DNA of 64,000 nt, taken from Seison nebaliae. Its lineage: Eukaryota. The notes under the pieces are model-generated. The model did no database searches and was not told the origin of the DNA. It saw only the letters and a program-made list of their open reading frames with translations. Positions within the stretch are counted from its first letter, which is position 1. Every line of letters begins with the position of its first letter. Of the stretch, positions 587-51,426 are shown piece after piece. The stretch is taken from assembly GCA_023231475.1 (NCBI GenBank), contig JALJEE010001852.1, positions 1 through 64,000 on the forward strand, read 5' to 3'. The translations under genes and the position numbers were made by a program.

Positions 587-1799
587 TTAAATTTTCCGAA
601 ATCGAAAAGTTCGATAAAGAGAAACTAATTCCCAATCATCGGGAGAAATTGTAGCGGAATTTCTACCGTTCTGTTCCTCCATCGCTTTCATCCGACGAAG
701 TAGTCGCTTATGTCGTTGTTGATTCATGTAAACATGATCGATGGAGAGTTTACTTTTGATCAAGATCAATCCAAACGATTCTGCCACATCCACCAAAAAC
801 GGGAAATAACATAAATATTCGGGACAATTGACTAGATTGTTATGTAGACTAAACATAATTTCACTACCGATCAATGGTGGCGGTTCACCATTCCCACATT
901 TCCATTCGACGACTTTATTTTCTGAATTAATTTCAACCGGAAATTTCGTCTCGATATGAATAATTGGAGAAGTGTATGAAATCCTTCCGAATCGTTTTCC
1001 ATTTTCCATTGATATTATTGACTCAGTTATCGCCTTTCCTTTCCGTCCTAAAAGATTTCTTTAAGAAACAATTGAAACATTTTTGTAGATGAAGAAAATG
1101 AAAAAAAAACAAAATCATTTCAGCGTCAGCTGTTATTCCGAAAAAGATGCCATTCCTCTCTAATCTCATAGAAATATTCTTAAAAAATATGTGTAATTGT
1201 CTCTCACTTTCAAACACGTAATGAAGAACAAATTGACAGGAGATTAAATTAAATGTTTTTTCTCCACAAGTAGAAAGGAAATCATTCTAAAATTCTTTAT
1301 AAATTTCTTTAAGAATAATCAGTAAAACTTGACTCACATTACTCACATCGAAATGAAAGTTCTTGTGATTAATGTCTAATGATTCGACGCGAGAACGACA
1401 AATGTTGATTGAAGATTCACATAAATCTGTTCATTCATTATTCATATCATCAATCTAAGGGTGGAATTTAATGGAATCATTTTAAGGAAATGTACCTGAG
1501 CACGTGATTTCTTTGATAATCGAATGATTCTTGTATTTGAGTAAATCGCCTCCCTTCCCACAACCAACATCCAAAAGTCGGACGTTCTCGGAGTTAGCAT
1601 AAAACTCACATAGACTCTCATCTATAGAAATTTAAATGAAAATTACCTAATTTAATTTGAAGCACAAACTGATCAACGTGGCTTTGATCCAATTATTCAG
1701 ATTTCTCCCGTAGAACAATCGACTAACATTCCTCTCATCTAAATCATTCTCGGCAACCCGCGAATAACTTTCAATGATCCTCTCACTATTCTCCGACAT
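587..1799 (-). CDS. RNMT: mRNA cap guanine-N7 methyltransferase, 5 exons
   Basis: Spliced translation gives RNLNNWIKATLI, LDVGCGKGGDLLKY, LISCQFVLHYVFESE and CPEYL, all RNMT/Abd1 motifs. Introns: 1622-1669 (GTTTGT), 1427-1495 (GTACAT), one ending near 1287 with an ambiguous donor, and 1059-1110 (GTTTTT). Confidence 0.9.
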
Positions 1800-1979
1800 G
1801 TCCGGATGAATAGAACTAACATTTCAAATACGAAATTTCCTTCAAATTCCTTATCATTTAATTCGGAAAGAATTACCCTCTCAATATGAAGCTTCGCTGA
1901 GCCGCAATTGGTTGATATGTCTTATGAAATTAAATCGATTTATTTCCAATTCTAAATCGAAACTGAAAAATTCTTTAAA

Positions 1980-3600
1980 ATGTTTTTCCTTTTCATTTTT
2001 GCATTTCTCGTTGGCGCGTCCGGTTATTCCGTTTATCAAATTCGGAAAATTAGTAAATCATTCGAAACGAATAATCAGAAAGGCTTCAACAATCTTCGTC
2101 AGAATCAGATGAATAAATTAAAGCAGTTAGTGAATAATCGAAAACAATTCACTCGACCGACGATCAGGGAACAACCAGTCAATTCTGTGACAACTAAAGA
2201 TACGAATCGATTTGTTGCAGCTAAACAAATTGGCTTTGATGAGATTAAAGAATTGAACATCAAAAAACATTTTCCATTGAGTCAAAATCGTACAATGGAC
2301 AATCGGTTTACTAATGCCGCTTTCCCCAAATATGTTCCGTCTAATTCTGACTCGATTATATCGAAATCTCTCAATAAATTAGCTTCCGTCATTTTGGATC
2401 AACCGCCGAACATCAATCAAAATAATTCGGAAGATTTTGATGAGAATGTTTAGATTTTTTCTATTATGATTATTTATTATTATATATTAATTATTTTAAT
2501 TTATTTCATTATCATATTCAAATGTCATTTAGACGAAAGAAGGCTATTTCAGGAAATTAGCAGCCGTTGATCCATGGTATGCTCGAAAGAAATTCCAGGA
2601 ATTGATACAACATGATAATGAAAACTTTCCCAATTTAGACTTGGATTTCATCAAACGAACATTTAGTCAAATGGCGAATAATATACGTGGATATATTGAA
2701 CAAATAACAAATAATCATCCACCACAACAAGAAGATATGGAAGCAAGAGTGATTTCATATGAACCGGAAAAACTGAAAATTGTCAATGATAAATTAAATC
2801 TCATTTCTCCATTCAACAACAACAATAATCGTTATCAAAACACGATGATAGAGGATACGTGGACGAGTTATTTGGGAGAAATGAGAAAATGTCGAAGTCT
2901 CAATTTGGAGAATCGGAAAGAAGGAATGAAAAAGAAACGTTACCGTCGACGACGACGACAACGACCAACAATCACAATGAGTTTTCCCAATTATCATTTT
3001 AAAATGAAGAGTCCGGAGAAGAGAAGTTTAGTGGGGACGGAAGATGATGATGTTGATTCATTCGAAGTGTTGACAAGTGATTCTGATGGTGTGATCGGTC
3101 GAACTGATGGAATTACTTTTCGAACATTCAATCCGATTGTTACTAATCCACAAATCATTCCACCACCATACAATGACACACAATCATTCAAGCGGATTGT
3201 TTTTAATAATAATTTATTATCTTATCACTTGCCACCGAAACTCCCCAATGCTATTGGTCATCAGACGACAAAGAAGAAATGGAAGAAAATTAATGATGAT
3301 GATACAATCACAAGTTTTCCGATAGAAATTGAATTTAATGGAGACTCATCAAATCGGCAATCTGACAATCAATCGGAGAATACATCTCAATTCAAATATA
3401 TCGATAATGATACAGAACCATTATACAAATTCGTATATAATCAAATCACCGAGAGCGTTCAACAATTCAAAAGGAATTTTGATGAACAATTTAACCGTTG
3501 TGCGAAAAGTGACGAGAAATCATACAAACATCTCATCGCTCAACTACAACCGATTCCTCAATACAATCCAATTAATACTTCCAACTCACCTCGTTTATAA
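1980..3600 (+). CDS. Uncharacterised protein with N-terminal hydrophobic segment; 3' end uncertain (may continue to about 4108)
   Basis: ORFs 1980-2453 and 2602-3600 join in frame through an 85 nt intron at 2448-2532 (GTTTAG...TTTAG, phase 0). No family recognised. Confidence 0.55.
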
Positions 3601-4425: not shown

Positions 4426-4585
4426 TTGGGATTTGCGCGTACGCAATCCCGGTCTATCATAAATTATGCGCCCGAGTACTTCACTTGAAGCATCGCGAAC
4501 ATTACCTCATCGAAGTGCAATGAATGAAGCTCCGCTCGGGAGATTCTCATCCATGATCGAGAAGTCTTCGGCGCCAGGTTAGTAT
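4426..4585 (-). ncRNA. U1: U1 spliceosomal snRNA with variant 5' arm (AUACUAACCUGG)
   Basis: The reverse complement shows the 5' arm ATACTAACCTGG, stem-loop I with loop GATCATGGAT, the loop II U1A site ATTGCACTTC, the Sm site ATAATTTATG and terminal hairpin GGGATTGCGTACGCGCAAATCCC. Length is about 160 nt and the element order is that of U1. Confidence 0.95.
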
Positions 4586-6417: not shown

Positions 6418-6420
<3 letters not shown>

Positions 6421-6456
<36 letters not shown>

Positions 6457-6463
6457 CACACAC
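6421..6463. repeat. (CA)n microsatellite
   Basis: Directly visible; similar CA/TA tracts lie at about 17504-17540 and 32413-32470. Confidence 0.95.
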
Positions 6464-9355: not shown

Positions 9356-9837
9356 TGATTAAGAACAATTTATCAAATGATAATAATTCTCTCCATCATA
9401 AATTATCACATTCTCTTTTCAACAACACGAATAACAACAGTTTATTCTATTCCTCTCCTCTCCAACTACCATTTCCATCTTCAGATCGTCGAATGAGTTT
9501 TCTGGCGAAGAACGAATCTCTCTCCAAAACAGACGTTGGCAAACAAAAAATATCGAAAAAGAATCGACTTCCTGTTATTTCTTCTGAGAATAACGAAACA
9601 TTAAAGAAACAAGAGAGATTGAGGAAGAATCGGTTAGCAATTCATTTATTTTTCCTTTCTTCTAAATTTTATCTTTTCAGAGAGGCCGCAAAAACTTGTC
9701 GTCAGAAGAAGAAGATTTATATTAAGACGTTGGAGGAACGTATTCGCGAATTGGAAGAAAAGAACAAACGTCTCACCGCCACAATTTTTGAGTTGCAGAA
9801 TCAATTGGGCAATCCCAACATGGATATAGTGAATTGA
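7279..9837 (+). CDS. CREB/ATF1-family bZIP transcription factor with long low-complexity N-terminus
   Basis: Removing the 48 nt intron at 9633-9680 (GTTAGC...TTCAG) restores RLRKNREAAKTCRQKKKIYIKTLEERIRELEEKNKRL, which matches the CREB basic region and leucine zipper. RRMSF is a possible PKA site. Confidence 0.85.
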
Positions 9838-10550: not shown

Positions 10551-11221
10551 ATGGGCAAATTAGCAATGTATGGTACCGTCTATTTCGGTATGATCGCCTC
10601 CGTTTTCGGTTATATCGGTCTCTCCAATTTGTTCACTGGATATGGATTCCGTTTCAACGCCACTTGGCTTCTCGTAGGCGTCAATCCATATATGTGGGCG
10701 TCGTTAGGTGCCGGTTTATCTATAGCGCTTTCTGTCGTAGGTGCCGCCACTGGAATTTATATCATTGGTGCAAGTATAACCGGTGGGACGGTGATGGCAC
10801 CAGGCATTGGTACCAGAAATATGATAAGTATCATTTTCTGTGAGGCCGTCGCAATTTATGGAATAATAATGGCGATCGTCATCGAACAGATGATCGAACC
10901 ATTCGATTATGAAGGAGACGAAGTTCCACATATATTTTGTGAGCGATTTTAAAATGTTTCGTTTTCTAGGAAATCCTTCGGAAGAATGTGGCAGCTGGTT
11001 ATCGATTATTCGGTGCCGGTCTCACCGTCGGATTTGCAAATTTAATTAGTGGAATAGCAGTTGGTATTGTTGGATCAGCAACGGCATTGGCTGACGCACA
11101 GAACAAAACTTTATTTGTCAAAATGATAATTGTGGAAATTTTCGCGAATGTCATTGGAATATTTGGTGTGATCGTTTCCATTTTACAAGTAGCAGGCAGT
11201 AAAATGGGAAATAAACATTGA
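10551..11221 (+). CDS. ATP6V0B: V-ATPase 21 kDa proteolipid subunit c''
   Basis: Motifs [24 protein letters not shown] and [11 protein letters not shown]. The intron at 10923-10969 (GTTCCA...CTAG, phase 0) joins the two ORFs. Confidence 0.93.
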
Positions 11222-11587: not shown

Positions 11588-12099
11588 ATGTATCGACCAG
11601 ATGAACCAAACATTAACGTCCAATATGCACCACAACAACAAATTCTCTCCAACAGTTCAGTTAACACTGGAAGAGTTTCACCAGCATATCCACCAACTGC
11701 CGCACCATACGGTCGAACTGGAGGACCACCACCACCACTACCACCGCCATATAAGGATCATGCGGTAGTGATAATGGAACAACCGCAAGCATTTAACCGA
11801 AATTTCCAACCTCTCGAAGATTTGGGGTCTCAATCTATCAATTTAATTTGTCCAAATTGTCATAATCACATCAACACACAAATCGTCTCTCATCCAAATG
11901 TGACGACTTGGCTCGCTTGTTTCGTCTTGTTCCTTTGCGGGTCTCAAATTTTTCTTCTTTTCTTAATTCAATTTATTTAAATATCAAACGTTATAGATGT
12001 GTCTTTTGTGCATGTATACCATTCTGTCTTCCCGCTTGTAAAGAGGTGGAACATAATTGTCCTATCTGTCATATTACTATTGGTCGACATAAACCGTAA
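11588..12099 (+). CDS. LITAF-domain protein
   Basis: Pro-rich N-terminus with PPPY, then CPNC, a hydrophobic stretch, CIPFC and HNCPIC. Intron at 11941-11996 (GTCTCA). A possible upstream ATG exon at 11488 would use intron 11492-11558 (GTTAAA). Confidence 0.9.
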
Positions 12100-12746: not shown

Positions 12747-13450
12747 ATGGTTATATCGCTTATCTTCTTATTTCAAGTTGACGACATTACTTAGGAACCG
12801 CCAGCCACTCCCATCAATAATGAATCGGAAAATAAGACAATTATGTCACATGTTCAGGACTTGAACTTGGATTACTTTAGAAGTTTTGAAGGAATAGTCA
12901 ATTCTATCTTGACTGGTCTTCTCTTTATTGCTCTTATATGTTCCGGTTCACAACCATGGCATACAACTATCGGTAGTTGGTTTGAAGCACAAGGAGCATT
13001 TTTGTTCATCCATCGAATTCTTTATTTCTTCATTCGAATATTCAAAGTGGATGAAAAGATTAAAATAATCAATTGGCGACTTTCCGTTAAATTTTCTTCT
13101 ACACTTATTTCACAAGTTTTCTGTAGGACTCGATTACGACACTGATACTCGTCGTCTTTTATCTTTTCAGTACGATAGCGCTTTTGACCAATACTCATGG
13201 CAATGCAGGATACATCGTTGCGGCAGTTTAGTCCATTTAACAACTGTTTTCTACCTTTTAATTTATTATTTTTTTTTAATTTCAAAAATTAATTTTTTTT
13301 AAGATCTTAGGATTAGTAATATGTTTCTCATCGGCGGCTCTTTATAATCCGGTCGTCGTCTGGAAGGAATTGAAAAATCGATCAGCGAATGTCGCAACTA
13401 CTAATGCGAATCCAACGGAACCACAATATCAAAATCGAGATACCGTTTAA
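12747..13450 (+). CDS. MARVEL-domain four-TM membrane protein (CMTM/plasmolipin-like)
   Basis: Spliced product has YFRSFEGI, INWRLSDSITT and YIVAAILG with four hydrophobic segments. Introns at 12750-12794, 13086-13126 and 13226-13303 are all phase 0 with GTT donors. Confidence 0.7.
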
Positions 13451-13545: not shown

Positions 13546-16500
13546 TTATTCATTTCCCACATTGAGCTGCGCTCGCACTTTCTTCAACGTAGTCGAACAT
13601 CGAAGTTTCATTAATTTGGAAGAAGGAGAATCAGTTTCACCTAATCGTTTCACTGGAATTGTTCCTTCTTCTTCTACAAACCGAACGAGAGTTCCATTGA
13701 GGAATTTCTTACACGCTTCCAAATTGAGACAGTTCTGTTAAGAAAAGAAATATAATTAGAAAATAAAAATGAAATAAGAGAACTGTATAATTGGCGAGGA
13801 CGCATTGGATGAAGGAGAGACAAGTTTGAATTTCAGAGACATCATCAAGGATTCGTAGATGTTCCCAAGTGATGGAGATTAATTGATTAAATGTATCGTT
13901 CGAAATCAATTGTTGATAAGATGACGATTTGAAGAAGTTCTGTATTTTCGTTTGTTCTTCCAATTTGACGTTTTTGAAATCGGTGAAATTGAATGAATTA
14001 ATTCCATTCATCTTCAATTCATGAAGTGCAAGGAAAATGCGCGATAACGATGCAACCAATGTGTCATGATATAAGATATCGAAATCATTCATCTTCATTT
14101 CGATAATGGAACTATTACCTTTCAATTCATTGATACATAATTCCATAAATGAATGGAACGACGATTCCTTCCCTTCCAATGATAAAATACTCAAATAATG
14201 AAAAGGCGAAGCAGAGAAAAGAGTGGAGATAGCATAAATGAAATTATTTCTTATCTCATCCGAATAACTCGTGAATTTCGATATTTCAACCAACGATTGA
14301 ACGAGATGAAATAGACGTGAATAAATTAGATGGAAATAAGATAAAAAATTCTTCTGTTGTGTCACATAGAAAGAGAGAACATTCGGTTTGGAGACACTTC
14401 CATCATTCGGTGCTAAATCTTGAATGAGCGTGCAATTGATAAGCATGGATAAGTAGCCGAGTGTATGACTCAAATCTTCGTCCGTATTTTCAATCGGTTT
14501 CGTCGACAATTTGGTGGTTTTGGTAGTTGGGATGAATTGCTTCTCGAAATGTGTAAGGACAATATCATAAATTCGAAATAATAAAACTCGACGTAAATCA
14601 TTCCAGGAATCAAATTCGTCTTTCGGTTGTATTTGATGTGGTTGTGGACGATTATTATTAATTGATGATTTATTCTTCTTTCTAACGTTTTGCGTATTTT
14701 GAATTCGGTTTTTCTTTCGCTGCGAATTCGTCAACTTCTTATTCTTCTGTTGTAATTCATGATAATTTTGCAACGGTTTCAATTCCTCCATTTTTCCATA
14801 GAACTCATGACGATGGAAATGGGGTGAGAGTGTGGCATAATAAAGATAATCGATAATCGATGGGAATAATTCGAGAGTTGATTGAATGATCTTTGAATTC
14901 TTTGCAGTTTTTTGTGAAGATGATGATTTCTTTTGAATGATCTTCTCACAATAATCCACCAATTTGACGAGAGTATTATGAGTAATGATGAGAGTTGAAC
15001 CTTTCTCATTGAATAATTGAAATTTATTTTTATTGTAAAATGACAATAATTTCGTCTTCTTCTCCAACATATCGAATTCATGAATTTGATGAATGTTCGA
15101 TACTTCGTCCATAACATTTATGATGGCTCTCAATGTTTCCGAATAGACGTCATCGTCCATCATTTGTTCACCGAATAATTTCTTCTCATCTTCCAACATA
15201 TCATTCTCCATATCACTCTCGTCAATAATATCGAGTAATCGATGGACGAAACCGTCGATGGAAATAAATCTTTTCTCATCATCAACGTCATCGATATCAT
15301 CCACATCATCTCCATTCTCATCCATCTTCTCATCATTCTTCTTCGATAATTCACTCAAACTGTTATACAATTTAACTGAATTGACCAATTTGTTTTCGAG
15401 AGATCTTTCTTCCGTTTTTCCATCAAAACGGAGAAATTCGATAAGTTTGATCAGACTGAAATTGGAGAATTTAATATCTCGAAATAATCGTCGATCATCA
15501 TCCACATATTTAATAATGATCAATGATAAATGGTAATCGATTGATGTGGCGATAGATGTGAGAGATGTTAGAGAAGTAGAAATAACATCATCCACCGGAT
15601 AATCGAGAAAATCGTGCAACGTCAACATGAGTTTTTGAATGAATAATGCTTTCGTATAGAGATGGAATAAATTCGATTTCTCATCATTTTCATTCGACCA
15701 TTCTCTCGGAATTTTTATGGTGATGTTGAGACGAGCGAGAGTAAAATCATTCAATTTGAATGGAAGAACGTCGTTATTGAAGAGAGATATAGCTGGTTGC
15801 ATTTGAACATCATTCCTGAATAACGACGCAGTAATTGAAGAGAATAAGATGTTGAGTGATCTCATACATGACGATTTGAGATCGATGGTACTATTAAGAA
15901 TATCACCACCTTCTAATTCGTCGTCACTATCATCATCGATCTCACTTTCGTCATCATCCTCGTTAACACTCTCATCAATCGATTCATCTCCTTTTATCAT
16001 CTGATTCTCCAACTTCTCCAACATACTCTCGTCCATTCCCATATCTTCATTCGTCGTTAACGATCGAACAATGTAATGAAGAAGTGTAAAGTACATTGGA
16101 TGCGGACAGAATGTCCCAACACTACTAAGCGCTGATGAGAGGAATGTATATCTGTTAATTATTTACAAATTGTTATTGTTATTGTTATTGTTTATATGGT
16201 AATTTTATTAGGTATTCCAGATTCCATTAGAAACAGGTTGATATGTTTCCATACCATCCATTGGATTTCATTCCATAAAAATGAAAGAAAGAAAAGAAAG
16301 AAAGAAAGATCATTAAATTTTGAACAAATAAATCATTTATCAAGAGGAGAAGCCTCTTCCTATCTCTCCTCCTCATCATCATCATCATCCTTCATTCCAA
16401 CCAACTAATCAACGAATCTTCACTCAATTTCTAGTCGACTAACTCTCTGTCTGAAGATCGATTGGATTTAATGAGGAATTGATGGTCATTTTCAGAGGAA

Positions 16501-19500
16501 GATATTCACCTCCTCATACAGAACGATAGGAGAAAGAAAATCGTTTGAGGTAAAACAGATTGAGTTATCTTTCAAGTTCATTCATTTTCTTCAGTCCTCC
16601 TTCCGATGAATGGAGGTCATTCCCATATCGGAAGGAGCAGAAGAAGAATGATTATTTTCAGTTAAGTCAGTTTGTCTGTCTATATTTTCTCCTTATTCTT
16701 GGTAATAAGAATAATATAAACATTGGATGATTCATCAAAACAATCAGTCAAATCAACCAGAAAATGAATAAGAGAAAAAAGGAAATTGTGGAAAAGAATT
16801 GTGTTGAAGAAAGTAGAAATATTTTCGTCTCCCCTCCATTCGGAGGGGGGGAAGATGCGAGTATAATCAATTTATATTTAATCAGGTTAAATGATAGAGA
16901 AGAAATGCTCATCATTGCGTTACATGAACAAATCATTCTTGTAATTTGGGGAGGAATTGAAATGGAAACAGAAATTATTTGAAGTCATTCTCTCTCACCT
17001 CCCACAGTTGAACGAAGAGAATGATTAATCAGTTTTGTCTTCTCTCCTTGATCGATTAATGAAGGATATGTATAAGGAGTGATGATGAATGTGAAATTAA
17101 TTAGCTAATTCTTATTCTAACTACGTTACTACTATTACTACCGGTTCTCTTACTCGTAAAAGCCGCATTCATCATTATTAGGGAAACATTCTTTCAATTA
17201 TTAACGATCTGATCTGACCCCGATACGTGGCAGTAACTTCTAATTAGGAAGAGGTCGACCAGAGAGATGTTGACTGCCACAGTCCTAAATAATATGGACA
17301 AGTTACGGCAATCTCTCCTCCCCTAAATCTTTGTCTTCCGCCCGAAAAATTGTACATCCGATCTACATTCCTCCTCTGACATATCACACAAATTGATGAA
17401 GGTTGTTCCCTATTGGTCGTTCCAAATTTCATCACCTTCACAATTCACTTCAACTGTTAATTTCCCATTTCGGGTTTTCCCATTTTTCCTTCTCTTCATA
17501 TCACCACACACACACACAAACACACACACACACACACACATTATCCCATCAAATGGAATCTCACCATCTGAAGATATTTAAATTTTTTCGTTCGATTAGA
17601 AAAAACCTGTAAGAGATAAAAGACGGAACATCTATCATAAGAGGAATTGAAAAAGAAATGAAAAGGAGAGTTGATGCAATTCGAATAATAAAATAAGAAT
17701 GAAGATTAATTTCCTAATTATCTTATTGATCACTATCGTTATTGGGAGATCGAAGAGTGACGAGTCCTATTTCGAAATTCAAAGAAGACGATTCATTCGA
17801 TTACGTCAATTACAAATGAAGAATTATGTAAAACAATTCAGTCTCGGCACAACATTTCAATCTAACATCTTTCCACTAAATCAAACAATAACAACAACAA
17901 CAACAACCCTACCAACAACAACAAGAGAATTATATAAAACTACAAAAATTTCCTTATCGAATAATACTGATTATTATTTCGATGGAGATTATTATGAACC
18001 AACACAATCTATTGGTCTTCTTCCAATTAAATCATCGACTAATATGTCAACGAATATGAAAAATTATTTCATTACAACAACAACCATTACTCCAACAACA
18101 ACAACAACAACAACAATCAGAACAACACTCACTAGAAATACAATAAAAGAGGAAGAACCGATGAATTTGGTTGTTAAATCCAATCGATATATTCAATATC
18201 ATCCAACTTACTTAACAACAACAACAACAACAACAACTGACCCGACAATTGCTGTTAATACAGTCTCGTCAATTTCTCCCGAGAAGAATGAGAGTCATCG
18301 TAAACAGATTCGAAGAAAATCGAGAAAAACTTTAAATATTTTAAAGTTATTAAAAACATTGTCGAAGAATCAAAGGAATAGATTGGTGAAATTGTGGAAT
18401 AAAAAGAAAACGTGGAAATCTAAATGGCAACCGAATGAGAAACATCGACGACAAAATACAAATAGTAATTTTAATATCGATCGAACCCATCAATTATCAT
18501 CAACTACCACAATAGGAATGAAAGAGGATTTAATTCCATCTACAATTCTCCCCACTACAACAATGACAACGATATCTACAACATCATCAGTAATGATAAA
18601 CAATTCGAATAATATGAGTAATCAATGTGTTTGTGAACGTGGACCACCAGGTCCGAAAGGTGAACCAGGTTTTTTTTTTAATTTTAAATTTTTCCATTAA
18701 AATTTTTCCTCTTTTAGGAATGATAATATTTAAACACGTTTACGTTGGATTTAATGATGTTGACGGGAAGAAACATATGGAACAGATTGACGAACCATCG
18801 ACAATTTCGAAAAAATATGAAAGAACAACTAGGAAACGTCATGAGAATAATCATAACGATGATAATGAGAAAATGATGGAAAAGTATGAACATCGTTTCT
18901 TATCGACAATTAAATCATATTTCATTCTCACACATCGTCTAACATTTCAATTGCAATCATTCCGTATACCGCAACCACTTGTCACTAAATTCCATAACGA
19001 ACGTCAAATTTTGACATTCAACAACATCATTTGGAATGATATGTCACTTTATAACCAATCGACGGGTCGACTGTCTATACCAGCCAATCTCTTTCAACAA
19101 ATTCAACGACATTTGCTCATTGTCAAATCGTCTTTATTCCCACATTCTCACTACTCACCTATTGGCGATCTGACGGCAGTTTTCCGTTTTCATCTAACAA
19201 TTTTATCTCAAACAAATCGTCGAGTTTGATCATTTCATTCAACATTTACATAAATTCACTCTTTCCAAAATTATAGGTGACGGTAGAAGTGTTCAAGAAT
19301 CGAGAATCACTTCATGTATTAAAGAATCATAATACGATCTATTCATCCTCCACTTCAACTTTGACGTTCGTAGAAGAATTAGATAGAAATAATTATGTTC
19401 TCTTCACTCTTTATTATCGTCTTTCTAATTATCTTTTGATTATCTATTTAGATTTGGTTAGCTCTTCATGGAGCATCCGAGAGTTACATAAGCGATGACA

Positions 19501-23023: not shown

Positions 23024-24164
23024 ATGACATCGTCGAATGAGAATGAAAGTATTGAAAGGTATTGTCTATTAACTCGAATGCTGTGTTCGCCGAAATTGAG
23101 TGGGATGAAGGAGGAGGAGGAGAATGAGACGAATCTGGATTTATTCCTCTCACGAGAACATATCGAACGATTACATAGGATGATGGAAAGAGAATTGGAT
23201 CATTTGAAAGCGGAAATTAATCAATTACAATCATCCATTGAAGAATTTACAATCATCAATCAACAACTATCACAACGAATCGATGCTATCGATGTTGATG
23301 TTTTGATTAATTATTTTTTTCGTATTTTCAAAATTTCCTTTCTAATTCTCCTTCCGTTTCATAGGAAGAACAAGTCGTTGCTCTTACTCGAACGTTGGAA
23401 GAGTGTCAATCACAATATGATCACATAATGAATATCGTAAAAGCGTTAAGTGATGGTTAAGATTCAAAGGAAAAATATTTATATTTATTTCCTCCATTCT
23501 AACGAGACAGTAAGTAAACTCTTCTCACTTTTTTGCTATTTCTCATTCTCTCGTTGCTCCTGCTGTTGTTGTTGTTCTTCTTCTTGAATGATCAAGAACA
23601 TTCGTCTTATTATTCTCCAAATTATCATTTGACATGACAGAAAAATTGGACAACAAATTAATTTTCTCTTTTAAATAATTTTCAGCTGAAAATAGAAAAC
23701 CGCCGATAAAACCGTCACTCCAAACCTCCATCTCAGCCAACACATCACAAAAAGAGAATTTTCTCCAAATTCCTTTCGTCTCCCGATCGACGAAAGAGAT
23801 CGGACGAAATAAACGGTCGAAAAGTTTTCAAAGTTTCACTCGCAAATTGTTCGTTCTTTTTCTCGTTTATAAACTACTAAATTAATTTTCCTTTCTCTAT
23901 TAAACGACAAGACTCGATCGAAACGTCTCACCAATCCAAAGGATATTGACAACACCTAAATTTCCCGGTCTCTCTCAATTCGTACCGAGTCAAACCGCTT
24001 TTGACACCATTCACCAGAAATCATCCACATTCCATCATACTCAAACCATCGCCGCTTATGTCCAATCCATCATTCATCAACGTCGTCCAACTCACCCGCC
24101 CGACAAAGATTTAGAAGTTTCTTGTAAGTTTATTGAAAATAAATTATGTAATCGAATTATTTGA
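23024..24164 (+). CDS. Uncharacterised coiled-coil protein (tentative exon model)
   Basis: Coiled-coil-like ORF from 23024. Frame-consistent introns at 23300-23364, 23456-23685 and 23849-23911 link it to ORF 23946-24164. No homology anchor. Confidence 0.45.
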
Positions 24165-25230
24165 TAATAAATTCTTTGTCCATATCGCCTCTCTCATCAT
24201 CTTCGTACGCATCTTCCATCATCTCCTCAATCGACTATCATATCATTATCATTTAAAATTGACGAATGAGACTAACAAATTTCTCTTCTAATTCATTCGA
24301 TGTGTTTGATGGAATCATAAAATCTTCACTCATCTTATTCTCCTCCATTTGTTCATTGTTTGAGATTTGTTGTTGTTTGTGACAATTGACGTACAATTCT
24401 TTCACTGTAACGAACGAAAAATATTAAAATTTTGAAAGACAAAATAATTTTTCTTTTTTTTTTTCAAGAATTTTTTTTTGAAAAATTTCAAAAATTCTTC
24501 GAAGAATTTTTTTAAAAAATATATATTTCACATATGTTACATTAAATTGAAAGTTGAGTTGAGAAACAATATAACATTGAGTGATTGATGATGAACAGAT
24601 TCTTAATTCGACATCATTTCGTTCAACTTCGGATGATGGTCTCTCGTCGACGGAATCGGAATCCATCCCTTCCTCCGAGTCATTTTCTTCCGCATCTGAT
24701 TAATTAGATAATCGGAAAGTAAATGTGGGAGAGGAATAACCAGCGAAACAAGATAGTGTTGAGGTAAATGATTCTACATTATCTCTCTCTGATAAGATGG
24801 CATTCATATAAATACAAGGTATTTTTGGGAATTGTTCTAAATCAGACGACATAGCCAAAATACAAAGAGACTCGAAAGGAATGACAAATAAATTTTCCGA
24901 TTTCTTCCAAAGTTCTGGTAAGGGAACTTGTTCCGAACAATTCTTATTATTAATCAATTTGATGTGCACTCCACTATGAGAATGGTATGTGTGAAAGGGA
25001 AAGTAGAGAGAATGTGAAACTTGTCGAGAACATCGACGGAAACTTGTCCACACTCCAATTGACCGACGAAAAAATGAGGGAAAGTCTGGAACATTTTTGG
25101 GAATTTGTGTGAAAGAAATTTTCGAATATTGAAACTAAAAATTTGAATAATATCGAATGGATGGAATAAGAAGTAATTGATGGTGAATTGAATGTGGGAT
25201 AATGTAGATTAATATAACTGTAGGTGTCAT
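24157..25230 (-). CDS. pICln-like methylosome subunit / Sm-protein assembly chaperone, 6 exons
   Basis: Spliced product contains FVIPFESLCILAMSSDLEQFPKIPCIYM, an acidic tract, ELRICSSSITQLKELY..C..QQ and an acidic tail, matching the pICln layout. Five frame-consistent introns: 25086-25218, 24974-25020, 24696-24740, 24405-24575, 24235-24276. Confidence 0.65.
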
Positions 25231-25297
25231 GACGACAAGAATTGTAAATTGACACAAATTCATTTTTCATAAAGGAAATTTATTGTTTTCAGTTCTC

Positions 25298-27000
25298 ATG
25301 GTTAGTTGTCATCTATTCTATTGAATAATCATTCTATCTAATAATAATAATAATAATTCCATTTGATGATTAGGCAAAAAAAGATAAAAAGAAGAAAGGA
25401 AAAGGAGGTGGGAATCCGGGAATGGTGGATGGAATTCCTACTGCCGAAATGACGAAAGAACAATTGGAGGAGCATATTATTCGATTGCAGGAAGAGATTA
25501 ATCGTGAGAGAGAAGAACGAAATTATTTCCAATTGGAACGTGATAAGATCAATACTTTCTGGGAAATAACAAAACGACAATTAGAGGAGAAGAAAGTTGA
25601 ATTGAGAAATAAAGATAGAGAGATGGAAGATGTTGAGGAGCGTCACCAAGTCGAAATTAAAGTGTATAAACAGAAAGTCAAACATCTGTTGTATGAGCAT
25701 CAAAATAATTTGGCTGAAGTTAAAATGCAGAATTTGGTGGAGTTTAAAGAGAAGGAGAATTCTGATTTCCAGAACGAAGTGAACGACAGAAAAGCAATTC
25801 GTGATTTGAAACAGAAGTTGCATGAAGATCGAATATCGAATGAAGAAGTGATGAAATCGATGAAATTGAAACAACAAGAAGAACAAACTGCGCTAAGAAG
25901 TCGATTCGAACAACAAGTGAGTGAAATCGAAGAGAAATTCAATATGAAAATGAAAAATTTGCGAGAAGATCTCGAACTGCGAAGAAAGACTGATATTCAT
26001 GAGGTGGAGGAGAGGAAGAACCAACAGATTAATACATTGTTGAAGAATCATGAGAAAGCTTTCTCCGATATCAAGAATTATTATAATGATATTACTCTCA
26101 ACAATCTCGCTCTCATCAATACGTTGAAAGTGGGAACTTATTTTTATAATATTATAAACATTCTAATTTCGCTTTATAGGAGCAAGTGGAAGAGATGAAG
26201 AAGAAGGAGGAACGTCTCGAGAAGCAAATGCATGAAACTCAAATGGAGAATAAGAGATTAGTTGACCCTCTCAATAAGGCGAAAGATGAATTGACAGACA
26301 TGAGGAAGAAAGTAACTTGTTATGAGAAGGACAAACAATTACTTGCTTCAACACGAAATCGATTGAAATTGTTGACGAAAGAACATTCGAATCTTCAATG
26401 GGAATTAGAAGTTCTCACACAACGATATGATGCTGTTCGTTTTTTATTTTTCTTTCCAAAAAAAACAAGTTATTTTGTGTCAGTTGGAGAAAGAACGAGA
26501 TGCTTATTATAAGAATTTCACGGAAGCAATTCATGACGTTCAACAGAAAGCTGGATTGAAGAATTTGTTATTAGAAAAGAAATTGACAACAATCGGAGAA
26601 ATGTTGGAGAAGCGCAATGCTCAATTCAATGAAGTTTCTATTCAATTAATTCACTTTCAACTTATTCTCTTCTCAGGTTGTTGTCACAGCGAATCTTGAT
26701 CCAACAGCAATTGGTGTAGTCGGATCGAAATTAGACGAAGTGGTCGAAAAGAAGAATAATATCATCAAAGAACTTCAATTAGAATTGGCCAGAATTTGCA
26801 AAGTTTTCTCATCATTATTTTTATTATTTCTATTCTTTCTAATTCTTCTTCAATTTTAGTCATATAATGATCTTTTAAGAAGTTTCGATGCGAAGTTACA
26901 ACAAATGGGATTATCCTCTTCCGAACATGGATTCAAACCAATGGCAACAACAGTAATGGAAGGAAATCGTGTGGGAACCGCTCCAATGCCAATACAATAA
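25298..27000 (+). CDS. GAS8: Growth arrest-specific 8 / dynein regulatory complex subunit 4, 6 exons
   Basis: [38 protein letters not shown] and [16 protein letters not shown]. Introns: 25301-25373, 26130-26179, 26435-26483, 26634-26676, 26803-26859. Confidence 0.97.
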
Positions 27001-28779: not shown

Positions 28780-28843
28780 CAAATAAATTTTATAATTATC
28801 ATTTCCTCTCGTCATATGTGAAGAATGAATGAAAATCTCGATT

Positions 28844-30133
<1,290 letters not shown>

Positions 30134-32106: not shown

Positions 32107-33364
32107 ATGTTGATTAAAGAATAGTTACAATTTTCTTCTCCTTAAGAAATTTCATGAAATTTTTAATATTCTTTTATTTTACATCTTTCCACCCTTGTCC
32201 AGTCGCGTCATACTTCCATTGACTTTGGAAGAGTATCAGATCGGACAATTGTACTGCACGGCGGAAGCTAGTCGTGAAAATACTGGTGGTGGCGAAGGCA
32301 TTGTTGTGGAAAAGAATGAACCGTTTACTGATAAAAAGGATTTATTCGAAGGATATACTTCTGGTCAATATACTTACAAAATCTATAAAATGGAAAGGTT
32401 TCCTTCTTATCATACACATATACACACACATATATATATATATATATACACACACATACACACACACAAACACATTTTCATCTCTCGCTCTATTTAGTAA
32501 AGTTCCAGCATTTGTCAAAGTCTTCATTTCACCAGGACGTCTAGATATACATGAGGAAGCATGGAATGCCTATCCCTATTGTCGTACTGTGTTGAAAGTT
32601 CTTCTATTCTCCTCCTCTTATTCTCACTTCAACATCTCCTTCAAAAGAATCCCGGTTTCATGAAAGATGATTTCGAATTAAAAATTGAAACTCTTCACGT
32701 CCAAGATGGAGGCCTATTAGAAAACGTTCAATTTTCTCCCTTCTATTGCTCTTCATCTCCATTTGTAGGCACATCAATTGTCACCAGTTCTCTTAAAGAA
32801 GCGAGACGTGTCTACTATCGATATCTCAAGAGATCATATTCCCAAACATGTTCACTTCATTTTCCCATTTCCTCCAATTATATTCATTCGATATTGAAGG
32901 ATTATAAGGCGGACGAAGATCCGGGAAAATTCCAATCGACAGTTGTTAATCGAGGACCTCTCGGTCCCAATTGGATTGATGAATATCGTGCAATTGCTGG
33001 TACTTCAGCTGCAGAAGGCAAACCGTTAATGTGCGCATATAAACTGGTAACAGTCGAATTCAAAATGTTCGGATTTCAGAATCGCGTCGAGAAATATGTC
33101 ATTAATGTTTAAACGAAATTTTCTTTTTCTTCCTCCAATTGTCGTTGAAAAAAGGCTGAACAACGTCTCTTTACCACGTTCCATCGGAAAGTTTTCTGCA
33201 CCATTGACAAATGGCATGGGAAGACAATACAAGACATTAGAGAATTAGAAAATGAGACGAAGGCAGCACTGGAAACAGTTCGATTTGTATTCTCTCTTTC
33301 AAATTCACTTCTATCTTTTCAGACGTTGGATAAAGGAGAAAAGCGTGGAATGATCGTGGAATAA
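32107..33364 (+). CDS. Class I phosphatidylinositol transfer protein (PITPNA/B-like), 8 exons
   Basis: [50 protein letters not shown] and FHRKVFC. Seven introns: 32124-32202, 32398-32497, 32598-32647, 32726-32768, 32850-32899, 33107-33154, 33278-33322. Confidence 0.96.
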
Positions 33365-34741: not shown

Positions 34742-37399
34742 GTTATTGTTGTTATTGAATGGATAATTCATGTTACATTCATATAAACGATTATCATTTT
34801 CACAATCATCATTTCCACCGTTTTCATGATACAATTTATGTTGATACGAATCGTCTTTCGACACATTCGTCGGAGAAGTGAGTAATGAATTAAAATGATA
34901 ATATCGACAATCTGACATTGATCGGAGAGGTTGTTTTCTTTCCGTTTGCAAATCGGTTTCATTCAAATATAAACCGAATTTCTCCAGACTCTGTTCTACT
35001 TCTTTCGTAACACTTGCTGCCGCTACATAAGCGATCTGTTTCATTCCATGAACGAAGAAATCATTAAGACATGATTGAATCACTGGTGCCACACAATTAT
35101 CCATTAAATTATTCGATTGCTTCTCATTCATCATACTATTATCATACAAATCGATATTATCATCTTCATTTTCACTTTCATAAATCGTCGGACGATTTTG
35201 CAAATATTTCTTATTCGTGTTATAAGATATTTCTTGATCGACGTTTCCTCGACGATAATGATGATTATTCTTCAAACTCTTCTGGATATCACTCAAATGA
35301 GGCACATTCGACGAGATTGAATACCGTTCTTCTTTCTGTCCTTTTCCATCATCTTTCTCTCCCAATTGTTGAAATGGGAATGAACATTTCGTTTTCTCCA
35401 AATGTTCACTCGTCATTCTCGAGTTACTTATCAATCTTTCTTTCCGTTTCTTTTTCATAGCAGTCGAATGCATCAATTCATTAATAACAGCATTCTGACA
35501 ATAAATCGTTCGACTATCGACTGGTAATTCGTTACAATAATTCTTCACCGTCGTTACGTCATTTGGAAGAAAATAATGATTTGGTGATTTATCACAATTG
35601 GATTTGAATTCAACATTTTCTTCCGATTTCTGTCTCTTAAAATTATTCGTCATGTCATTCCGATATTCTGATATTCTTCTATTTTCCGTCATTGATGATG
35701 GTATTTGATTTTTCATATTTAATTGAAAATAATCATCATCGGAATGTATTTTATTATTTTGCGAGACTGTTGTTATTGTTGTTGTTGTGGTGGTGGTAGG
35801 AGGAGGTGTCACATGAGTGGAAGAATGATTTGAATATTTTAAGTTTTTATTACAATTATTCATATTCCCTTGTAACATGATACCACTGTCTTTGTTACTG
35901 CTGAGTGGACTGTTAGAGATTTGTTTCTCCGAATGTTTATTAATATTGAAGGAGCATCGATCGAATTTTAAGGATGATTCGGAACATAATGATGATGATG
36001 ACGATGAAGAAGTATTCGTTGAAGATGTTAAGGACATGGAAGGATTTCTCAGCCATTTCCTTTTCGGTAAAATATTCTCTTCATCTATTCGTTGAATTTG
36101 GAAGAAGGGTTGATTGGAATTAATTAATCGATCCTGATTCCGATTCAGACTATTAATACTATCTGTTACATTAATTTGTTGTAACTTTATCAATTTATAA
36201 GGAGAAAGATGATGTAGTGGTGGTTTATCTTCACCAACAAATGTCGAAACTAAATTATCAGAATCGGTTGATGGAAATAAATTACTTTTTAATTGAATCG
36301 ATGACTTCTCAATTTTCTTCCGATTATGATTATTGTTGTTATTGTTGTTGTTGTTGTTGTGATTATTCTTCTTTAAACATTTCGTTTCTACATGAATATT
36401 CGTTCGGATATTACTAGTCGACAAATCTTTCTTATTTCTTCTCAAATCTTTTGTACTCATTAATGGATCTGTTGTTTGTTGTTGACTCAATTGACCATTA
36501 TCTACTATGGAAATCGTGGAATCGGATATATTAGACATTTTATCTTTTTTACCCGAAACTTGCTCACCATCAGATAATGATTCCGTATAACTGCTAGCTA
36601 TCGATGTGATGAATGGAGAGATGAATTGTTGTGATGGTTTCTTCGATCGATTAATCGGACTCAAATAATTCCGTTTCACAAAATGTTCATAAGTTCTTGA
36701 TGCTTTCTCCTTCCGCCGAATGAGAATTCTAGAAAACATTCAAATTATTATAATCTTCTCAATCATTATGAAATTACTAAACCGGATGATATGACTCAAA
36801 TAAGCGATCGATAAGAAAACCATCAACACCAATAAGATGATGGCACCTGTGATAAATATACTGCGGAGAAATTCTTGTTGTTCCATTTTCTTCATTAATT
36901 TCGTGGGAATTTCATTCATCGAATTCATTGTAATCATTGTGGAATTAGTATCGCTTTTTATTTCCTGTGAATTATTCATTGTTGTCCTGTCTACCATCAT
37001 TGTAGTGAAATCATCAGTAGTTGATAGAGAAGAAATTCCTGAATAAGTTTTTGTCAAATTTGAATTGAGGTATTTGGTTCCAGCACGATTGTTTGTTTGC
37101 TGCAAATGAATGGATGAGAGGACTTCGTTCAAATCGCTAATACGATGAGGAATGACTCGTTGTAAATGTCGAAGATTCGACGTATAATTATTCACTTCTG
37201 GTACAATATTATTAAGTAGACGACGAATTGATTTGTAGTTAGGGAGATTTTTCGTTTGATTAAAATAATTAATTTTTATATTGTTGTTGTTGTTATTTGG
37301 ATGATTGTTATCGTGATGATTTGTCAGATAATAATTAATTGGATAATTAAATGAATTTGTTGAATTTTCATCGACATTCTCTTTCATCAGCAGAATCAT
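34016..37399 (-). CDS. Uncharacterised single-pass membrane protein with long low-complexity tail
   Basis: Two same-frame ORFs are joined by a 54 nt intron at 36729-36782 (GTTTAG...CTAG) that contains the intervening stop. A TM segment IFITGAIILLVLMVFLSIAYL is followed by basic residues. Confidence 0.65.
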
Positions 37400-47070: not shown

Positions 47071-47077
47071 ATAAAAA

Positions 47078-50000
47078 TTATTGAGTCTGATATTTAGTGG
47101 TGGTTGGTGGGAGTGCATCACCTTCCATATCATTCACACAATGTTCGTCATCTTCACCGTTTTCAGGATTTGGAAGAATGTCTTCTTCCGGTATACTCTT
47201 ATCCAAATACGCGAAATATTTAAGATTAATGATAGAAAGTGCAGTGAATGATGACGGTATAGTGGCGGAGGAGGTGATTGACGAGGCGTTCGATGACGAA
47301 GTGTGGAAAGATTTTGGTTGATGTAATTGAAAGAGAAGTTGAATAATTTCGTAATTCACTTTTAAATTTTTCACGTCGATCTTCTCCGACAGATTCATCG
47401 CATCTAATAACGAGAGTTTGGACTGATGAAATGATCCGGTCATTTCGATGGTAATTGAAGTATTACCTTTCTCCTCACTCTTCACCAATTCGTAGAGTCG
47501 CCAAGTCTGTAAAAGAATGGCATAAACGGCGATAACGCAATTGATGAGTGAATTCGATTTGGATGATTGATTATGAATTAATTTATGAATATTAATTGAA
47601 TGATGATTCTTCTCATTCACTAATCGTTTTAATAAATTAATGATATAACATTCCGTTATATCGATCATTTCGATAATGGAAGAATTGTCTAATTGGTCGA
47701 AATTGATAAATGTTTCGATCATTTCGTTCAATTCGTTCAACTCATAACTGAATGTACATTCGAATTTGATATTGGATGATGATGATGAGAGAAATGAAAA
47801 ATTGAAATGAAGAAGTGGAAATGAACTAACTCATCCGACAACTGGTCGATATCGACGAGATATGATGGAAGTTGCTGTTGGATCAGACAATCGATACAGG
47901 AACAATTGACATTCGTTTGATACTTCGATTCAACATTTTCCGATGATGTCGACGATGTATTTGTAGTTGGTGATGATATGGACGGTTGAATATGATGATA
48001 ACGATGATGATGGTGATGATGATGGTTTGAACTATAAAATTTCTTTTTTAAAAATAAACTTTTCAAATAATTGTTGGCGCGAATAATATTCTTGTGACGT
48101 GACGATGTTGATTGTGATCGTTTGATGAGTTTAGATGAGGGAGATAATCGATCGTTAGAATATGCATCGAATGATGGTGAGAAATCCGTTCCGTTCAAAG
48201 TGAGTGTGAGAAGAATGAATCGATTATTCCATACGTAATAATTGACAGTGTTCAATGACATACGATCATCAATACGAATAGATTGATTGAATATCATCGT
48301 TCTCAATCGATTCCTCATTACGTCGTCATTATCGATGAGATATGATTGTCGATACATTGATCGTTTGATGGAATTGCGATGTGATCGTCGAAAAAATGAA
48401 GCAAAGGATTGTTTCGTCGAAAATTCATTAGAATTTTTCCCACTTCCATTCAATGACGAATGATCATCAATGGAATGATCATTGTCGAAAGTTGGCGAAT
48501 CAACAATTAATTCCATTTCCTGAATTCTCACCAGATCACTATTGATATGATGAATGATCCTCTCAACCGCCATATGAGAAATGATGGAGAGATCATGTTG
48601 TTGTTGCTGCTCTACTACATATTGTTGTTGACCGTAATTCGATTGAGTTTGTGAATGAAATGGTTCGATTTGAAATTGTTGTCTCGATTGTGTCGTATTT
48701 AATGGTTCGGTGGAGAGAATATCAGACATTTTCATCCATTCTGGTAAAATTTGCATGACATTCTGAAAATGTAAAAGAATATTATAATAAATTGATTTAT
48801 ATGAAAGAATACATTCATTCAATGTCTCCCAATCATTATCTAAAATATCGATCAATTCAATCATCAACAAATCATCTGATTTCACTCGAATATATGACGG
48901 ATATCCTAATTGTTGTTGTTGTTGTTTCGTCGTATGAATGAGGAAGAATTCCATTTGACTCTCACTCAATTTCACATTAGATGAATAATCGTCGAGGAGA
49001 TTAGTCGTATAATTATTTGAATTTTGAATAAGATATAATGGAAATTGAAGAACGAGAGAAAATAAATTATTGGGAATTAAATTCTGTTTGAGAAGATCGA
49101 GAGCTTTCGCTTTTGTTGGATGAAGACGATTCGTTCGATATAATTGCTCTTTCTCATTCGTTATCATTAGAAGACATTGATGTAATAGACGTGCCAAATG
49201 GAGAATGAATCGATAATATATGTCATAGAACAAATTAGCGATAATAAATCGTCCATAATAATTAATGGAATTATTAAAAATTGATTGTATCATCAATCGT
49301 CCACGACTAATCGAATCCATGTTCACTATACAAGAATTCATTTGACGTTCATTCATTCTCACCATCAGATAACCAAGACTTATATCTAATTGGCACCAAT
49401 TCGTGGATAAATAACTCATGACATTCCATTCACAATTTGACACATTCGAATCGCCAATAATTATTTTCAAATTTCTTTTACTTTTCTCGAATAAGTTGAG
49501 AAGATAATCGATCCAATTATCTCCCCACAAATCATCAGTCAATGTCTTATTCATCAATTCTTCTTTCTCATCATTCTCCTTCGACAATTCAATGATATTC
49601 TCTTTGATTGTCAATCGTTTCTCATTCTCATCATCAATCAACAAATTCTCACTTAACGATCGACCATTCTTTCCCAAATTTAAGAGGAATTCAATTTTAC
49701 ATCCATCCAATTCCGTCAATAGATAATAGAAAATCAATTTAACGAATCGTTTCAATTCCTCCAAATTCTCCATCGTCATCTTCTCTCCTTTCAACATCAT
49801 GGAAGCGAAATCATCATCTAATCGAAACAATTGACTAATGCAATTACAATTGAAGAGATCCCACATCTCAATTTGGAAATGGGAATTCAAAGTGATGACA
49901 TATCGACGATTAGGTAACTGATAATAATTGAGAATGGAACAACCGACTCCTGACGAGAAGATAACGGAATATGGAAATATTTCATGATTCATCTTCTCAC

Positions 50001-51426
50001 ATTTTTCCATTTTCTCACTGGGAATTAACGATAATTTTTTTAAAAATTTATCATAAAATTCAATTTTCTCTTCTTTATCATTTTCGTTCGTTATGAAACA
50101 TTTGGGTAAATATCCATTGAATCCTGATGATGATTTCGATGCGACTAATAAAACTTGATTATTCTTCTTTAATTCCATTCCTTTTAAATCATAATATGAC
50201 GTTCTTATACATTCATCACATTCAATTTCATTAATCTCATCTGTCAATTTCACACATAATTCCAGATCGATAATTGAGGAATGTTCTTGTAAAATCGATT
50301 CATTCATCGAATTATGAAACGAAAATAATTGAACAGATCCATCACTTTCTCCCACATAACATGATTTACCTTCATCTAACATAATTAATGATTTCAATCC
50401 ACATATCTCTGAGAGTCGATGTTGAGAGAGAATGTCCATTTTCCTCATGTCCCATTGCGTCAGGAAACCATCAGCGGAGATGGTGGTTAGAAGTTGATGA
50501 TTTTTCTTTAACGAATGAATTGTTCTTGTTTCTTGGAATAATTCTTTGATTAAATTCGATTGTCGAATATCCCATACGAGAATCTTTCCGTCGATATGTC
50601 CCGAATAAACGGTACCACTCTCCTCCTCCGTCTCTAACGAATAAGAACTTTCGATATTTGTCGATTGATTGAGAATGACAGAACATAAAGGAAATCGATT
50701 GAATTTCTTCAAAAATCGATTCGTCTCCAATTTCTCTAATTGAACTTTACCATTCATATCAAATTTACTCTGATCTAACACATTCAATAAATTATCTAAT
50801 CGATATCGATTAGTCGATTTCGATCGATTTGGTAATAAAATCGTTTCCGTCAACATTCCATCCAAATGAGTCACTCTTATCGTACTATCCATCGATGATG
50901 ATACAAATAAATTCTTTTGTCTCATACATTTTATCTCATTCACTTGATCATGATGTTGAGTGAACGTATCAGCAAGTAAATAATTTCCATCATTCTCATC
51001 AAATTTCCAGATTTTCACCGTTTCATCCGAAGATCCGGACAATACTAAAATCAAAGTATTTTATTTGTTAAGAAGAAAAAAAAATTTAACAGAAATCATT
51101 CCAATAATCGATGGTATTAATCCAAGAGGAATGATCAATTAATTTATCTAGAAATTTTATTGATAATTTCCCACAAATTTTACATTTCTTTTCAAAGAAT
51201 TATCATTCAAATTTTAATAAACAATCACAAACTTGTAATCTCCATCGGCCTATAGTAGCGTCACGTGACGCCGAAAATATTTCTGAATGATTCTCATTCC
51301 AGAGAAGATTGTTAATGGAATTGTTATGAATTGAGTGTGATAGAAATCGATTAGTCAAAGGCACAGAAATCTTTCGAGGTCAAAATTAAAAGAAAGATGA
51401 AAAAGAAAAGAAACAGTGGAAGACAT
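47078..51426 (-). CDS. WD40-repeat protein, WDR48/UAF1-like, 5 exons
   Basis: Spliced N-terminus NSINNLLW..IFSASRDATIGRW, HSSWINTI, LLSGSSDETVKIW and HHDQV, plus NRRYVIT and NWCQLDISLGYLMV, follows WDR48 order. Introns: 51371-51414, 51188-51232, 51045-51090, 47748-47830. Confidence 0.75.

Follow-up and report, generated by a model that had tools for sequence, protein, structure and literature searches.

Can the consensus of the 5′ splice site and the U1 small nuclear RNA (snRNA) that reads it change together in an animal? Most animal introns carry a purine at donor position +3 and G at +5, and the 5′ end of U1 is treated as frozen in animals. The question is raised by a 64-kb stretch of DNA from Seison nebaliae, a gnathiferan animal placed under Rotifera in NCBI (GenBank assembly GCA_023231475.1, contig JALJEE010001852.1, positions 1 to 64,000; hereafter the window). 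An initial annotation of this window had assigned GTT donors to 36 of 39 introns and had proposed that the donor consensus shifted together with a change in U1. Introns are here predicted from DNA, and all sequencing runs used were DNA. The set analyzed comprises 39 introns: 35 breaks resolved by enumeration, in which all frame-preserving, stop-free GT/GC...AG pairs between anchors in the adjoining exons were listed, and four pICln introns taken from a deposited protein model.

Independently re-derived coordinates give the same count from a slightly different set, with T at +3 in 36 introns and A, C and G in one each (T fraction, Wilson 95% confidence interval 0.80–0.97). The exceptions, GTACAT in RNMT (1495), GTCTCA in LITAF (11941) and GTGGGA in GAS8 (26130), are exactly those claimed before, and the reported lack of GTAAG donors extends to GTGAG (GTRAG 0/39). 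The accompanying premise that AT-richness would favor A as much as T at +3 proved wrong, as GTs in the window are followed by T in 40% of cases and by A in 19%. Intron interiors are composed of 47% T, 30% A and 5% G, and positions +7 to +20 reach 55% T. Against background T frequencies of 0.40, 0.47 and 0.55 (0.546), the observed 36/39 yields p = 1e-11, 3e-9 and 3e-7, respectively. The comparison with GTs inside introns, which the initial annotation had proposed as a check, agrees: T follows 15 of 33 such GTs versus 36 of 39 donors. Along the donor, the T count falls from 36 at +3 to 16 at +4 (Fisher p = 2e-6), 10 at +5, 17 at +6 and 22 at +7, and the information content falls from 1.49 bits at +3 to 0.23 at +4 and 0.01 at +5. 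The shift to GTT is real and restricted to +3. Two other kinds of donor were considered and rejected. The U12-type donor GTATCC occurs in none of the 39 introns, and a shifted register (GT-T-NNG, with the G of +5 moved to +6) is not seen: because +6G is found in only one of 39, the donor is not displaced by one base.

An Rfam search of the window returned one RNA, a full-length U1 snRNA gene on the minus strand at 4426..4585 (RF00003; 108 bits against a gathering level of 69.5, E = 2.8e-26, model positions 1–166). The gene begins with AUACUAACCUG rather than AUACUUACCUG, and when its 5′ end, AUACUAACCUGG, is set against the Rfam consensus, AUACUUACCUGG, the sole change within the first 12 nucleotides (nt) is U to A at position 6 (4580..4580, minus strand). 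In place of the recognition sequence ACUUAC, the window copy reads ACUAAC. In the established register of U1–donor pairing, position 6 faces intron position +3, and U6>A therefore turns a reader of A into a reader of U. The predicted fold retains four stem-loops with compensated stems, the U1-70K loop, the U1A loop and the Sm site, with a few substitutions in the 70K loop and the Sm site. The same 421 letters of this region are present in four DNA runs of two studies, which possibly include the source runs of the assembly. In agreement with the altered base, the window U1 gives a stronger pairing than an Rfam-type end at 32 of 35 donors (median −0.1 versus +0.9 kcal/mol over the 35 introns). 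The proposal that donors shifted together with U1 is supported by U6>A, as an extrapolation from a single 64-kb window and a single U1 gene. We consider it likely that U1 with A6 reads the GTT donors, that a U–A pair at +3 replaces A–U, and that the two partners co-evolved. As a separate observation, the variant 5′ end contains UACUAAC (4578–4584), the textbook branch-point sequence, and might thereby base-pair with U2 or be bound by SF1.

Outside GTT the donor is nearly blank, a feature absent from the initial annotation. Relative to the animal consensus MAG|GTRAGT, G is present at −1 in 8 of the 39 introns, A at +4 in 11, G at +5 in 9 and T at +6 in 17. There are 30 distinct donor hexamers, and GTTAG, the perfect complement, occurs in four introns. 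The +5G count is higher than expected from intron bodies, which are 5% G (p = 1e-4), and this excess is a remnant of the old donor signal. The introns are short and G-poor (median 49 nt, minimum 41, with 29 of 39 between 41 and 57 nt), and they end in TAG (19), CAG (13) or AAG (7). The branch-point motif YTRAY is found in 17 of 35 introns versus 15.4 in shuffles. In 29 of 35, no GT further downstream could serve as the donor without shortening the intron below 41 nt, and no association was found between intron length and donor strength.

Could the choice of junctions be circular? At 17 of the 35 breaks a single frame-compatible GT exists (termed the only option below), and it is GTT at 15 (p = 0.005 at a background of 0.557). 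Profile hidden Markov models built without Seison, from 112 GAS8 and 39 PITP homologs, rank the chosen junction first at 5/5 GAS8 and 7/7 PITP introns, of which 11 in 12 start with GTT. A coding-versus-intron model with +1 to +6 scored flat, whose choice is called the blind pick, places GTT at 30 of 35 breaks and selects the same donor at 32, and the alternative GTs rejected by enumeration are GTT in 10 of 31 cases. Three deposited proteins, SNEBB_008401 (PITP), SNEBB_008387 (RNMT) and SNEBB_008397 (pICln), all located on one 74-kb contig, map letter for letter onto the window (100% identity for a PITP exon, an RNMT exon and the pICln frame, respectively) and define 16 introns, 15 of them GTT. 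With intron ends left unconstrained, a GT–AG placement is possible at 16/16 of these junctions, whereas the enumerations presupposed GT/GC–AG. A tier of firm junctions, assigned by judgment from by-eye comparison with human sequences, contains 20 GTT donors out of 23. DNA runs X1 and X2, which show zero differing letters and zero intron-sized joints across 16000–34000, speak neither for nor against the junctions.

The gene labels given earlier stand for RNMT, bZIP, ATP6V0B, LITAF, GAS8, TFB1M and PITP (Pfam or PDB matches) and for pICln (deposited protein). The names 'MARVEL', 'importin' and 'C1q', which have zero Pfam matches, and 'WDR48', which has generic WD40 matches only, are kept as labels of the initial annotation. 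PDB searches with LITAF and pICln gave nothing useful. The earlier per-gene counts change in two places: the deposited model gives pICln four introns, the claimed fifth being unconfirmed and left out, and an ambiguous RNMT intron is now included.

In RNMT (minus strand), intron 1 (1622..1669, GTTTGT, 48 nt) is given by the deposited model, a PDB alignment spanning the junction and the blind pick. Intron 2 (1427..1495, 69 nt), the GTACAT exception after an exon ending in CAG, and intron 4 (1059..1110, GTTTTT, 52 nt) are each the only option and match the deposited model. Intron 3 (1287..1328, GTTTTA, 42 nt) is the ambiguous one, with five GT options of which two are GTGAGT; GTTTTA at 1328 is chosen by the deposited and the donor-blind models, by the latter with a margin of just 0.1 nat. 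On the plus strand, the bZIP intron (9633..9680, GTTAGC, 48 nt), at whose acceptor the Pfam bZIP match starts, and the ATP6V0B intron (10923..10969, GTTCCA, 47 nt) are only options. The LITAF intron (11941..11996, plus strand, 56 nt), the GTCTCA exception after an exon ending in CGG, is the blind pick with a margin of 1.6, and an alternative GTT donor is present at 11929.

In 'MARVEL' (plus strand), intron 1 (12750..12794, GTTATA, 45 nt) directly follows an assumed start ATG and rests on enumeration and the blind model, intron 2 (13086..13126, GTTAAA, 41 nt) is the only option, and intron 3 (13226..13303, GTTTAG, 78 nt) has two GT options, each GTT. The 'importin' gene (minus strand) has intron 1 (16152..16234, GTTTCT, 83 nt) as the only option given an assumed upstream exon and intron 2 (13735..13783, GTTCTC, 49 nt) as the blind pick. 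For 'C1q' (plus strand), intron 1 (18669..18717, GTTTTT, exon end CAG, 49 nt) is the blind pick among four options with a margin of 0.4, while intron 2 (19224..19276, GTTTGA, 53 nt) and intron 3 (19397..19451, GTTCTC, 55 nt) rest on enumeration and the blind model. The pICln introns (minus strand) all come from the deposited model: intron 1 (24974..25020, GTTTCA, 47 nt), which is also the blind pick among four donors; intron 2 (24696..24740, GTTATT, 45 nt); and, from that model only, intron 3 (24405..24575, GTTATA, 171 nt) and intron 4 (24235..24276, GTTAGT, 42 nt).

The five GAS8 introns (plus strand) are ranked top by the non-Seison profile: intron 1 (25301..25373, GTTAGT, 73 nt) of nine options, intron 2 (26130..26179, the GTGGGA exception, 50 nt) of 16, intron 3 (26435..26483, GTTCGT, 49 nt) of 13, intron 4 (26634..26676, GTTTCT, 43 nt) of five and intron 5 (26803..26859, GTTTTC, 57 nt) of four. 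On the intron side, the GTTAGT donor of intron 1 complements the window U1 perfectly. In TFB1M (minus strand), intron 1 (29922..29967, GTTGCT, 46 nt) rests on enumeration and the blind model, intron 2 (29750..29805, GTTCCT, 56 nt) and the in-frame intron 3 (29353..29400, GTTTCC, 48 nt) are only options, and intron 4 (29016..29195, GTTAAT, 180 nt) has two options, each GTT; at the site of intron 3 a 16-residue gap is seen relative to the solved TFB1M structure. All seven PITP introns (plus strand) have the deposited model, the non-Seison profile and a vertebrate breakpoint in common: 32124..32202 (GTTACA, 79 nt), 32398..32497 (GTTTCC, 100 nt), 32598..32647 (GTTCTT, 50 nt), 32726..32768 (GTTCAA, 43 nt), 32850..32899 (GTTCAC, 50 nt), 33107..33154 (GTTTAA, 48 nt) and 33278..33322 (GTTCGA, 45 nt), the last scoring 2.8 bits above a GTA option in the profile. 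In the WD40 gene (minus strand), intron 1 (51371..51414, GTTTCT, 44 nt) follows from enumeration provided that translation begins at the ATG at 51426, and intron 2 (51148..51222, GTTTAT, 75 nt) from enumeration and the blind model with alternatives GTTTGT at 51232 and GTG at 51228; intron 3 (51045..51090, GTTAAA, 46 nt) is the only option and intron 4 (47748..47830, GTTAGT, 83 nt) is the blind pick with a margin of 5.7.

Seven extra breaks lie outside the initial list and are without homology support, and GTT is found at six of them. Only options are 2448..2532 (plus, GTTTAG, 85 nt), 23849..23911 (plus, GTTCGT, 63 nt), 36729..36782 (minus, GTTTAG, 54 nt) and 56215..56469 (minus, GTTATA, 255 nt); 23300..23364 (plus, GTTTTG, 65 nt) and 56646..56734 (minus, GTTAAA, 89 nt) come from enumeration; and the break at 56888–56930, where the upstream frame was guessed and GTA and GTC are the sole options, was counted as a miss. 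The minus-strand region 55781–56950 appears to be an unnamed spliced gene with GTT introns and no Pfam match. Elsewhere in the window, the introns at 9633–9680, 29353–29400 and 33278–33322 are in frame and free of stops, so that retention would lengthen the protein. Long intron-free reading frames are present at 19447–21882, 28171–28776, 46309–47067, 53004–55553 and 58245–63998 (an unnamed 812-residue frame, a YKT6-like frame, a dual-specificity phosphatase, a DDX11-like helicase and a RhoGEF); they adjoin genes with ancestral introns, a pattern of patchy intron loss. At 38800–39150, a short motif around GTCTACCAAAT is repeated on both strands and resembles a small inverted-repeat element.

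A scan of metagenomes for U1-like genes with a base other than U at position 6 found 19 loci, 14 of which fall below the Rfam U1 gathering level and five of which are Rfam U1 genes with ACUAAC. Four of the five represent a single animal-like gene, present as two alleles or as two copies (138–141 bits; L001 1080–1240, L002 2888–3048, L012 343–503 and L017 347–507), whose two versions have flanks about 80% identical and a conserved upstream element; this gene may be a maintained U1 that reads +3U. On one 2.9-kb metagenome contig (L006, 1155–2553), U2, an ACUAAC U1 (85 bits) and a canonical U1 (121 bits) are adjacent. Loci L003, L004, L008 and L015 carry tandem truncated U1-like copies below the Rfam gathering level, ACUCAC being followed by ACUUAC 118 nt on.

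In the mechanism that we propose, the window U1 copy would be expressed and would perform the bulk of donor recognition, and the GTT pattern would extend genome-wide. Once the A6 U1 existed, old GTR donors would have been converted one by one, a process eased by the drift of short introns toward T. Because −1, +4 and +5 are nearly uninformative, pairing at a typical donor would be limited to three contiguous base pairs (G+1:C8, U+2:A7 and U+3:A6). Since three such pairs are weak, the donor would likely be picked by intron definition, as a GTT that precedes an AG by 41–57 nt, with a G-poor, U-rich tract between them, and U1 proteins or U-tract binders would stabilize the U1–donor contact. Exonic pairing (CAG|GTA, CGG|GTC) or a second U1 copy likely sustains the few donors that are not GTT: two of the exceptions show strong exonic pairing (−6.1 and −5.1 kcal/mol), and GTGGGA pairs better with canonical U1 (−3.8) than with the window U1 (−0.4).

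A number of observations weigh against this interpretation. The intron junctions and the U1 gene are known here from DNA alone, and the basis is one 64-kb window and 39 introns, with enumeration anchors of our own choosing. The deposited models do not amount to independent evidence from RNA, and one of their introns, RNMT 1179–1229 (51 nt, GTT–AG, in frame), was excluded from the 39-intron set as a probable false prediction. It removes 17 residues within a conserved stretch that, when read through, is collinear with Pfam PF03291 (residues 10–59 to profile 140–189), and because the excised residues fall inside this match the intron is a probable predictor artefact; alternatively, it may be an exitron. 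In an annotation-free scan of GTN...AG, GTT reaches 17.6 versus 7–11 per 1000, and AT and CT controls lean toward T too. This probably false intron and the reliance on DNA would suit the view that the bias is an artefact of by-eye junctions or a GTT-trained gene predictor, as would the disagreement of the blind model at 3 of 35 breaks and several margins below 1 nat; the single-option junctions and the homology-only picks described above nevertheless show the same bias, and an artefact is very unlikely. It is also highly improbable that donor selection beyond GT was simply lost and that +3 drifted to T along with the T-rich intron body. The 47–55% T of the introns and the collapse of −1, +4 and +5 are compatible with such drift, but the T excess is confined to +3, is not seen after interior GTs, and disfavors drift at p = 3e-7 even with the highest background. 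The uniform length of the introns might instead point to recent Introner-like insertions with GTT at the element end, an idea that is barely credible here given where the PITP introns lie. All seven are within one residue of a vertebrate PITP breakpoint (random mean 2.2, P = 2e-4), the breakpoints (97 in total, 35 distinct) being indirect proxies of exon boundaries drawn from vertebrate isoforms and partial models. Their coincidence with vertebrate exon boundaries therefore indicates old introns with donors rewritten in place, which would make the PITP introns ancestral rather than new insertions. The sequence shared among introns consists merely of low-complexity or chance 12-mers, and the donor hexamers are diverse; an Introner origin was rejected on the basis of the shared PITP positions and the lack of inter-intron similarity.

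The main rival view accepts the GTT consensus but assigns most of its reading to a canonical second U1 together with U1C, Luc7 or TIA-1-type proteins, or to a changed U6 or U5, with the ACUAAC gene as a minor paralog or a late adjustment. A second U1-like locus does exist, at equal single-copy depth on a 10–15 kb contig; it matches 4537–4587 with 10 differences in 51 nt, these lie over the 5′ part, and its loose end bears a hairpin with the U1A loop motif. This locus may be a divergent second U1, which on this view would carry the canonical base at position 6. Donor pairing is also very weak even with the variant U1, with a median predicted energy of about 0 kcal/mol compared to −14.0 kcal/mol for a perfect-match duplex, and pairing at the 32 real GTT donors is no stronger than at 43 decoy GTTs close by (p = 0.47); U1 pairing may therefore not be what selects +3U. 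In other organisms, ACUAAC copies adjoin canonical ones (at one metagenome locus, at a distance of 0.5 kb), and Fritillaria, yeasts, Thecamonas and Micromonas altered their splice sites with the U1 5′ end unchanged. Because ACUAAC U1 genes make up 5 of the 19 metagenome loci, a donor shift does not follow from the variant by itself. What counts against a different reader is that, of the possible changes to the U1 end, exactly the one facing the changed donor position is found, in a gene that is intact and has compensated stems, and we regard this alternative as unlikely. The argument for co-evolution of GTT donors with the A6 U1 rests on this match, within the same genome, between the changed U1 base and the sole changed donor position.

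The closest known parallel is Entamoeba, where, according to Roy and Bowser (bioRxiv 2022, 10.1101/2022.06.08.495308), GUUUGU(U) donors are paired with a co-evolved U1 ACAAAC that includes U6>A. Both systems share +3U donors and the same U1 change facing +3. In Entamoeba, an intron-poor protist, two positions changed (+3 and +4), +5G and +6U are kept, the donors are nearly uniform and there is a single U1 candidate, whereas in Seison, an animal, one U1 base changed, 30 hexamers occur in 39 introns and at least two U1-like loci are present. Seison thus has a majority atypical base (36/39) and the complementary U1 base, and in place of a homogeneous hexamer it has degenerate donors; it works like the Entamoeba system by analogy and is not a full member, a second U1-like locus being present in addition to the window gene. 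The same source describes U1 ACGUAC with GUGCGC donors in Mastigamoeba balamuthi, which resembles Seison in its single compensatory change and intron-richer genome and differs in being a protist with the change at +4. It also reports that most lineages with odd donors left U1 unchanged, with no compensatory change in 69 yeasts, Thecamonas or Mamiellales. As described in the accessible text on the larvacean tunicate Fritillaria borealis (PMC13326754), 95% of introns are non-canonical and the U1 5′ end is strictly kept. Like Seison, it is an animal with a U2-type spliceosome and splice sites rewritten genome-wide, an extent that in Seison is extrapolated from the window; its introns have non-GT/AG ends and its adaptation is ascribed to U2AF paralogs and N6-methyladenosine, in contrast to Seison, where GT–AG is kept and U1 is changed. 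With standard U2-type introns, so far as the available parts of PMC1557818 and PMC10599564 describe them, Seison introns share GT...AG ends, a pyrimidine-rich 3′ part and the Rfam U1 fold, and they differ from those read by U1 ACUUAC in the blank donor positions given above. Extra U1 genes with altered 5′ ends likewise include the reported human variant U1 (vU1) and Drosophila U1 isoforms and the metagenome ACUAAC copies. To our knowledge, no matching majority donor shift accompanies variant U1 paralogs, the donors of the metagenome organisms lying outside this comparison.

The accessible text of Mauer 2021 (PMC8351084) contains no 'snRNA' and one unrelated 'splice', PMC12256650 contains no 'splic', 'snRNA' or 'intron', and no report of a Seison donor or U1 shift was found in the accessible open full-text literature, supplements being outside that scope (PMC10125929, PMC11347168, PMC10158995, PMC10599564, PMC1557818). 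A matched donor–U1 rewrite was found described for protists only, and Seison is apparently the first case in an animal. More tentatively, at somewhat less than even odds, Seison may be the first animal in which the U1 recognition sequence and essentially all ancestral donors were rewritten, with a donor code reduced to the three letters GUU, recognition of introns by their length and paucity of G, a +5G/U6 check that is largely abandoned and a second, divergent U1 serving the few remaining donors other than GTT. If so, the abandoned check predicts that the U6 ACAGA box has changed or that helper proteins have been lost.

In this animal, a change of one U1 base appears to have accompanied the passage of thousands of old donors from GTR to GTT. 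Seison makes this joint change of a trans-acting reader and all of its targets testable with public data, namely the orthologous introns of bdelloids, monogononts and acanthocephalans together with two Seison strains and two U1 loci. Seison also shows how little donor sequence the metazoan spliceosome may need and cautions against gene predictors and U1-based splice scores, which break down in this clade.

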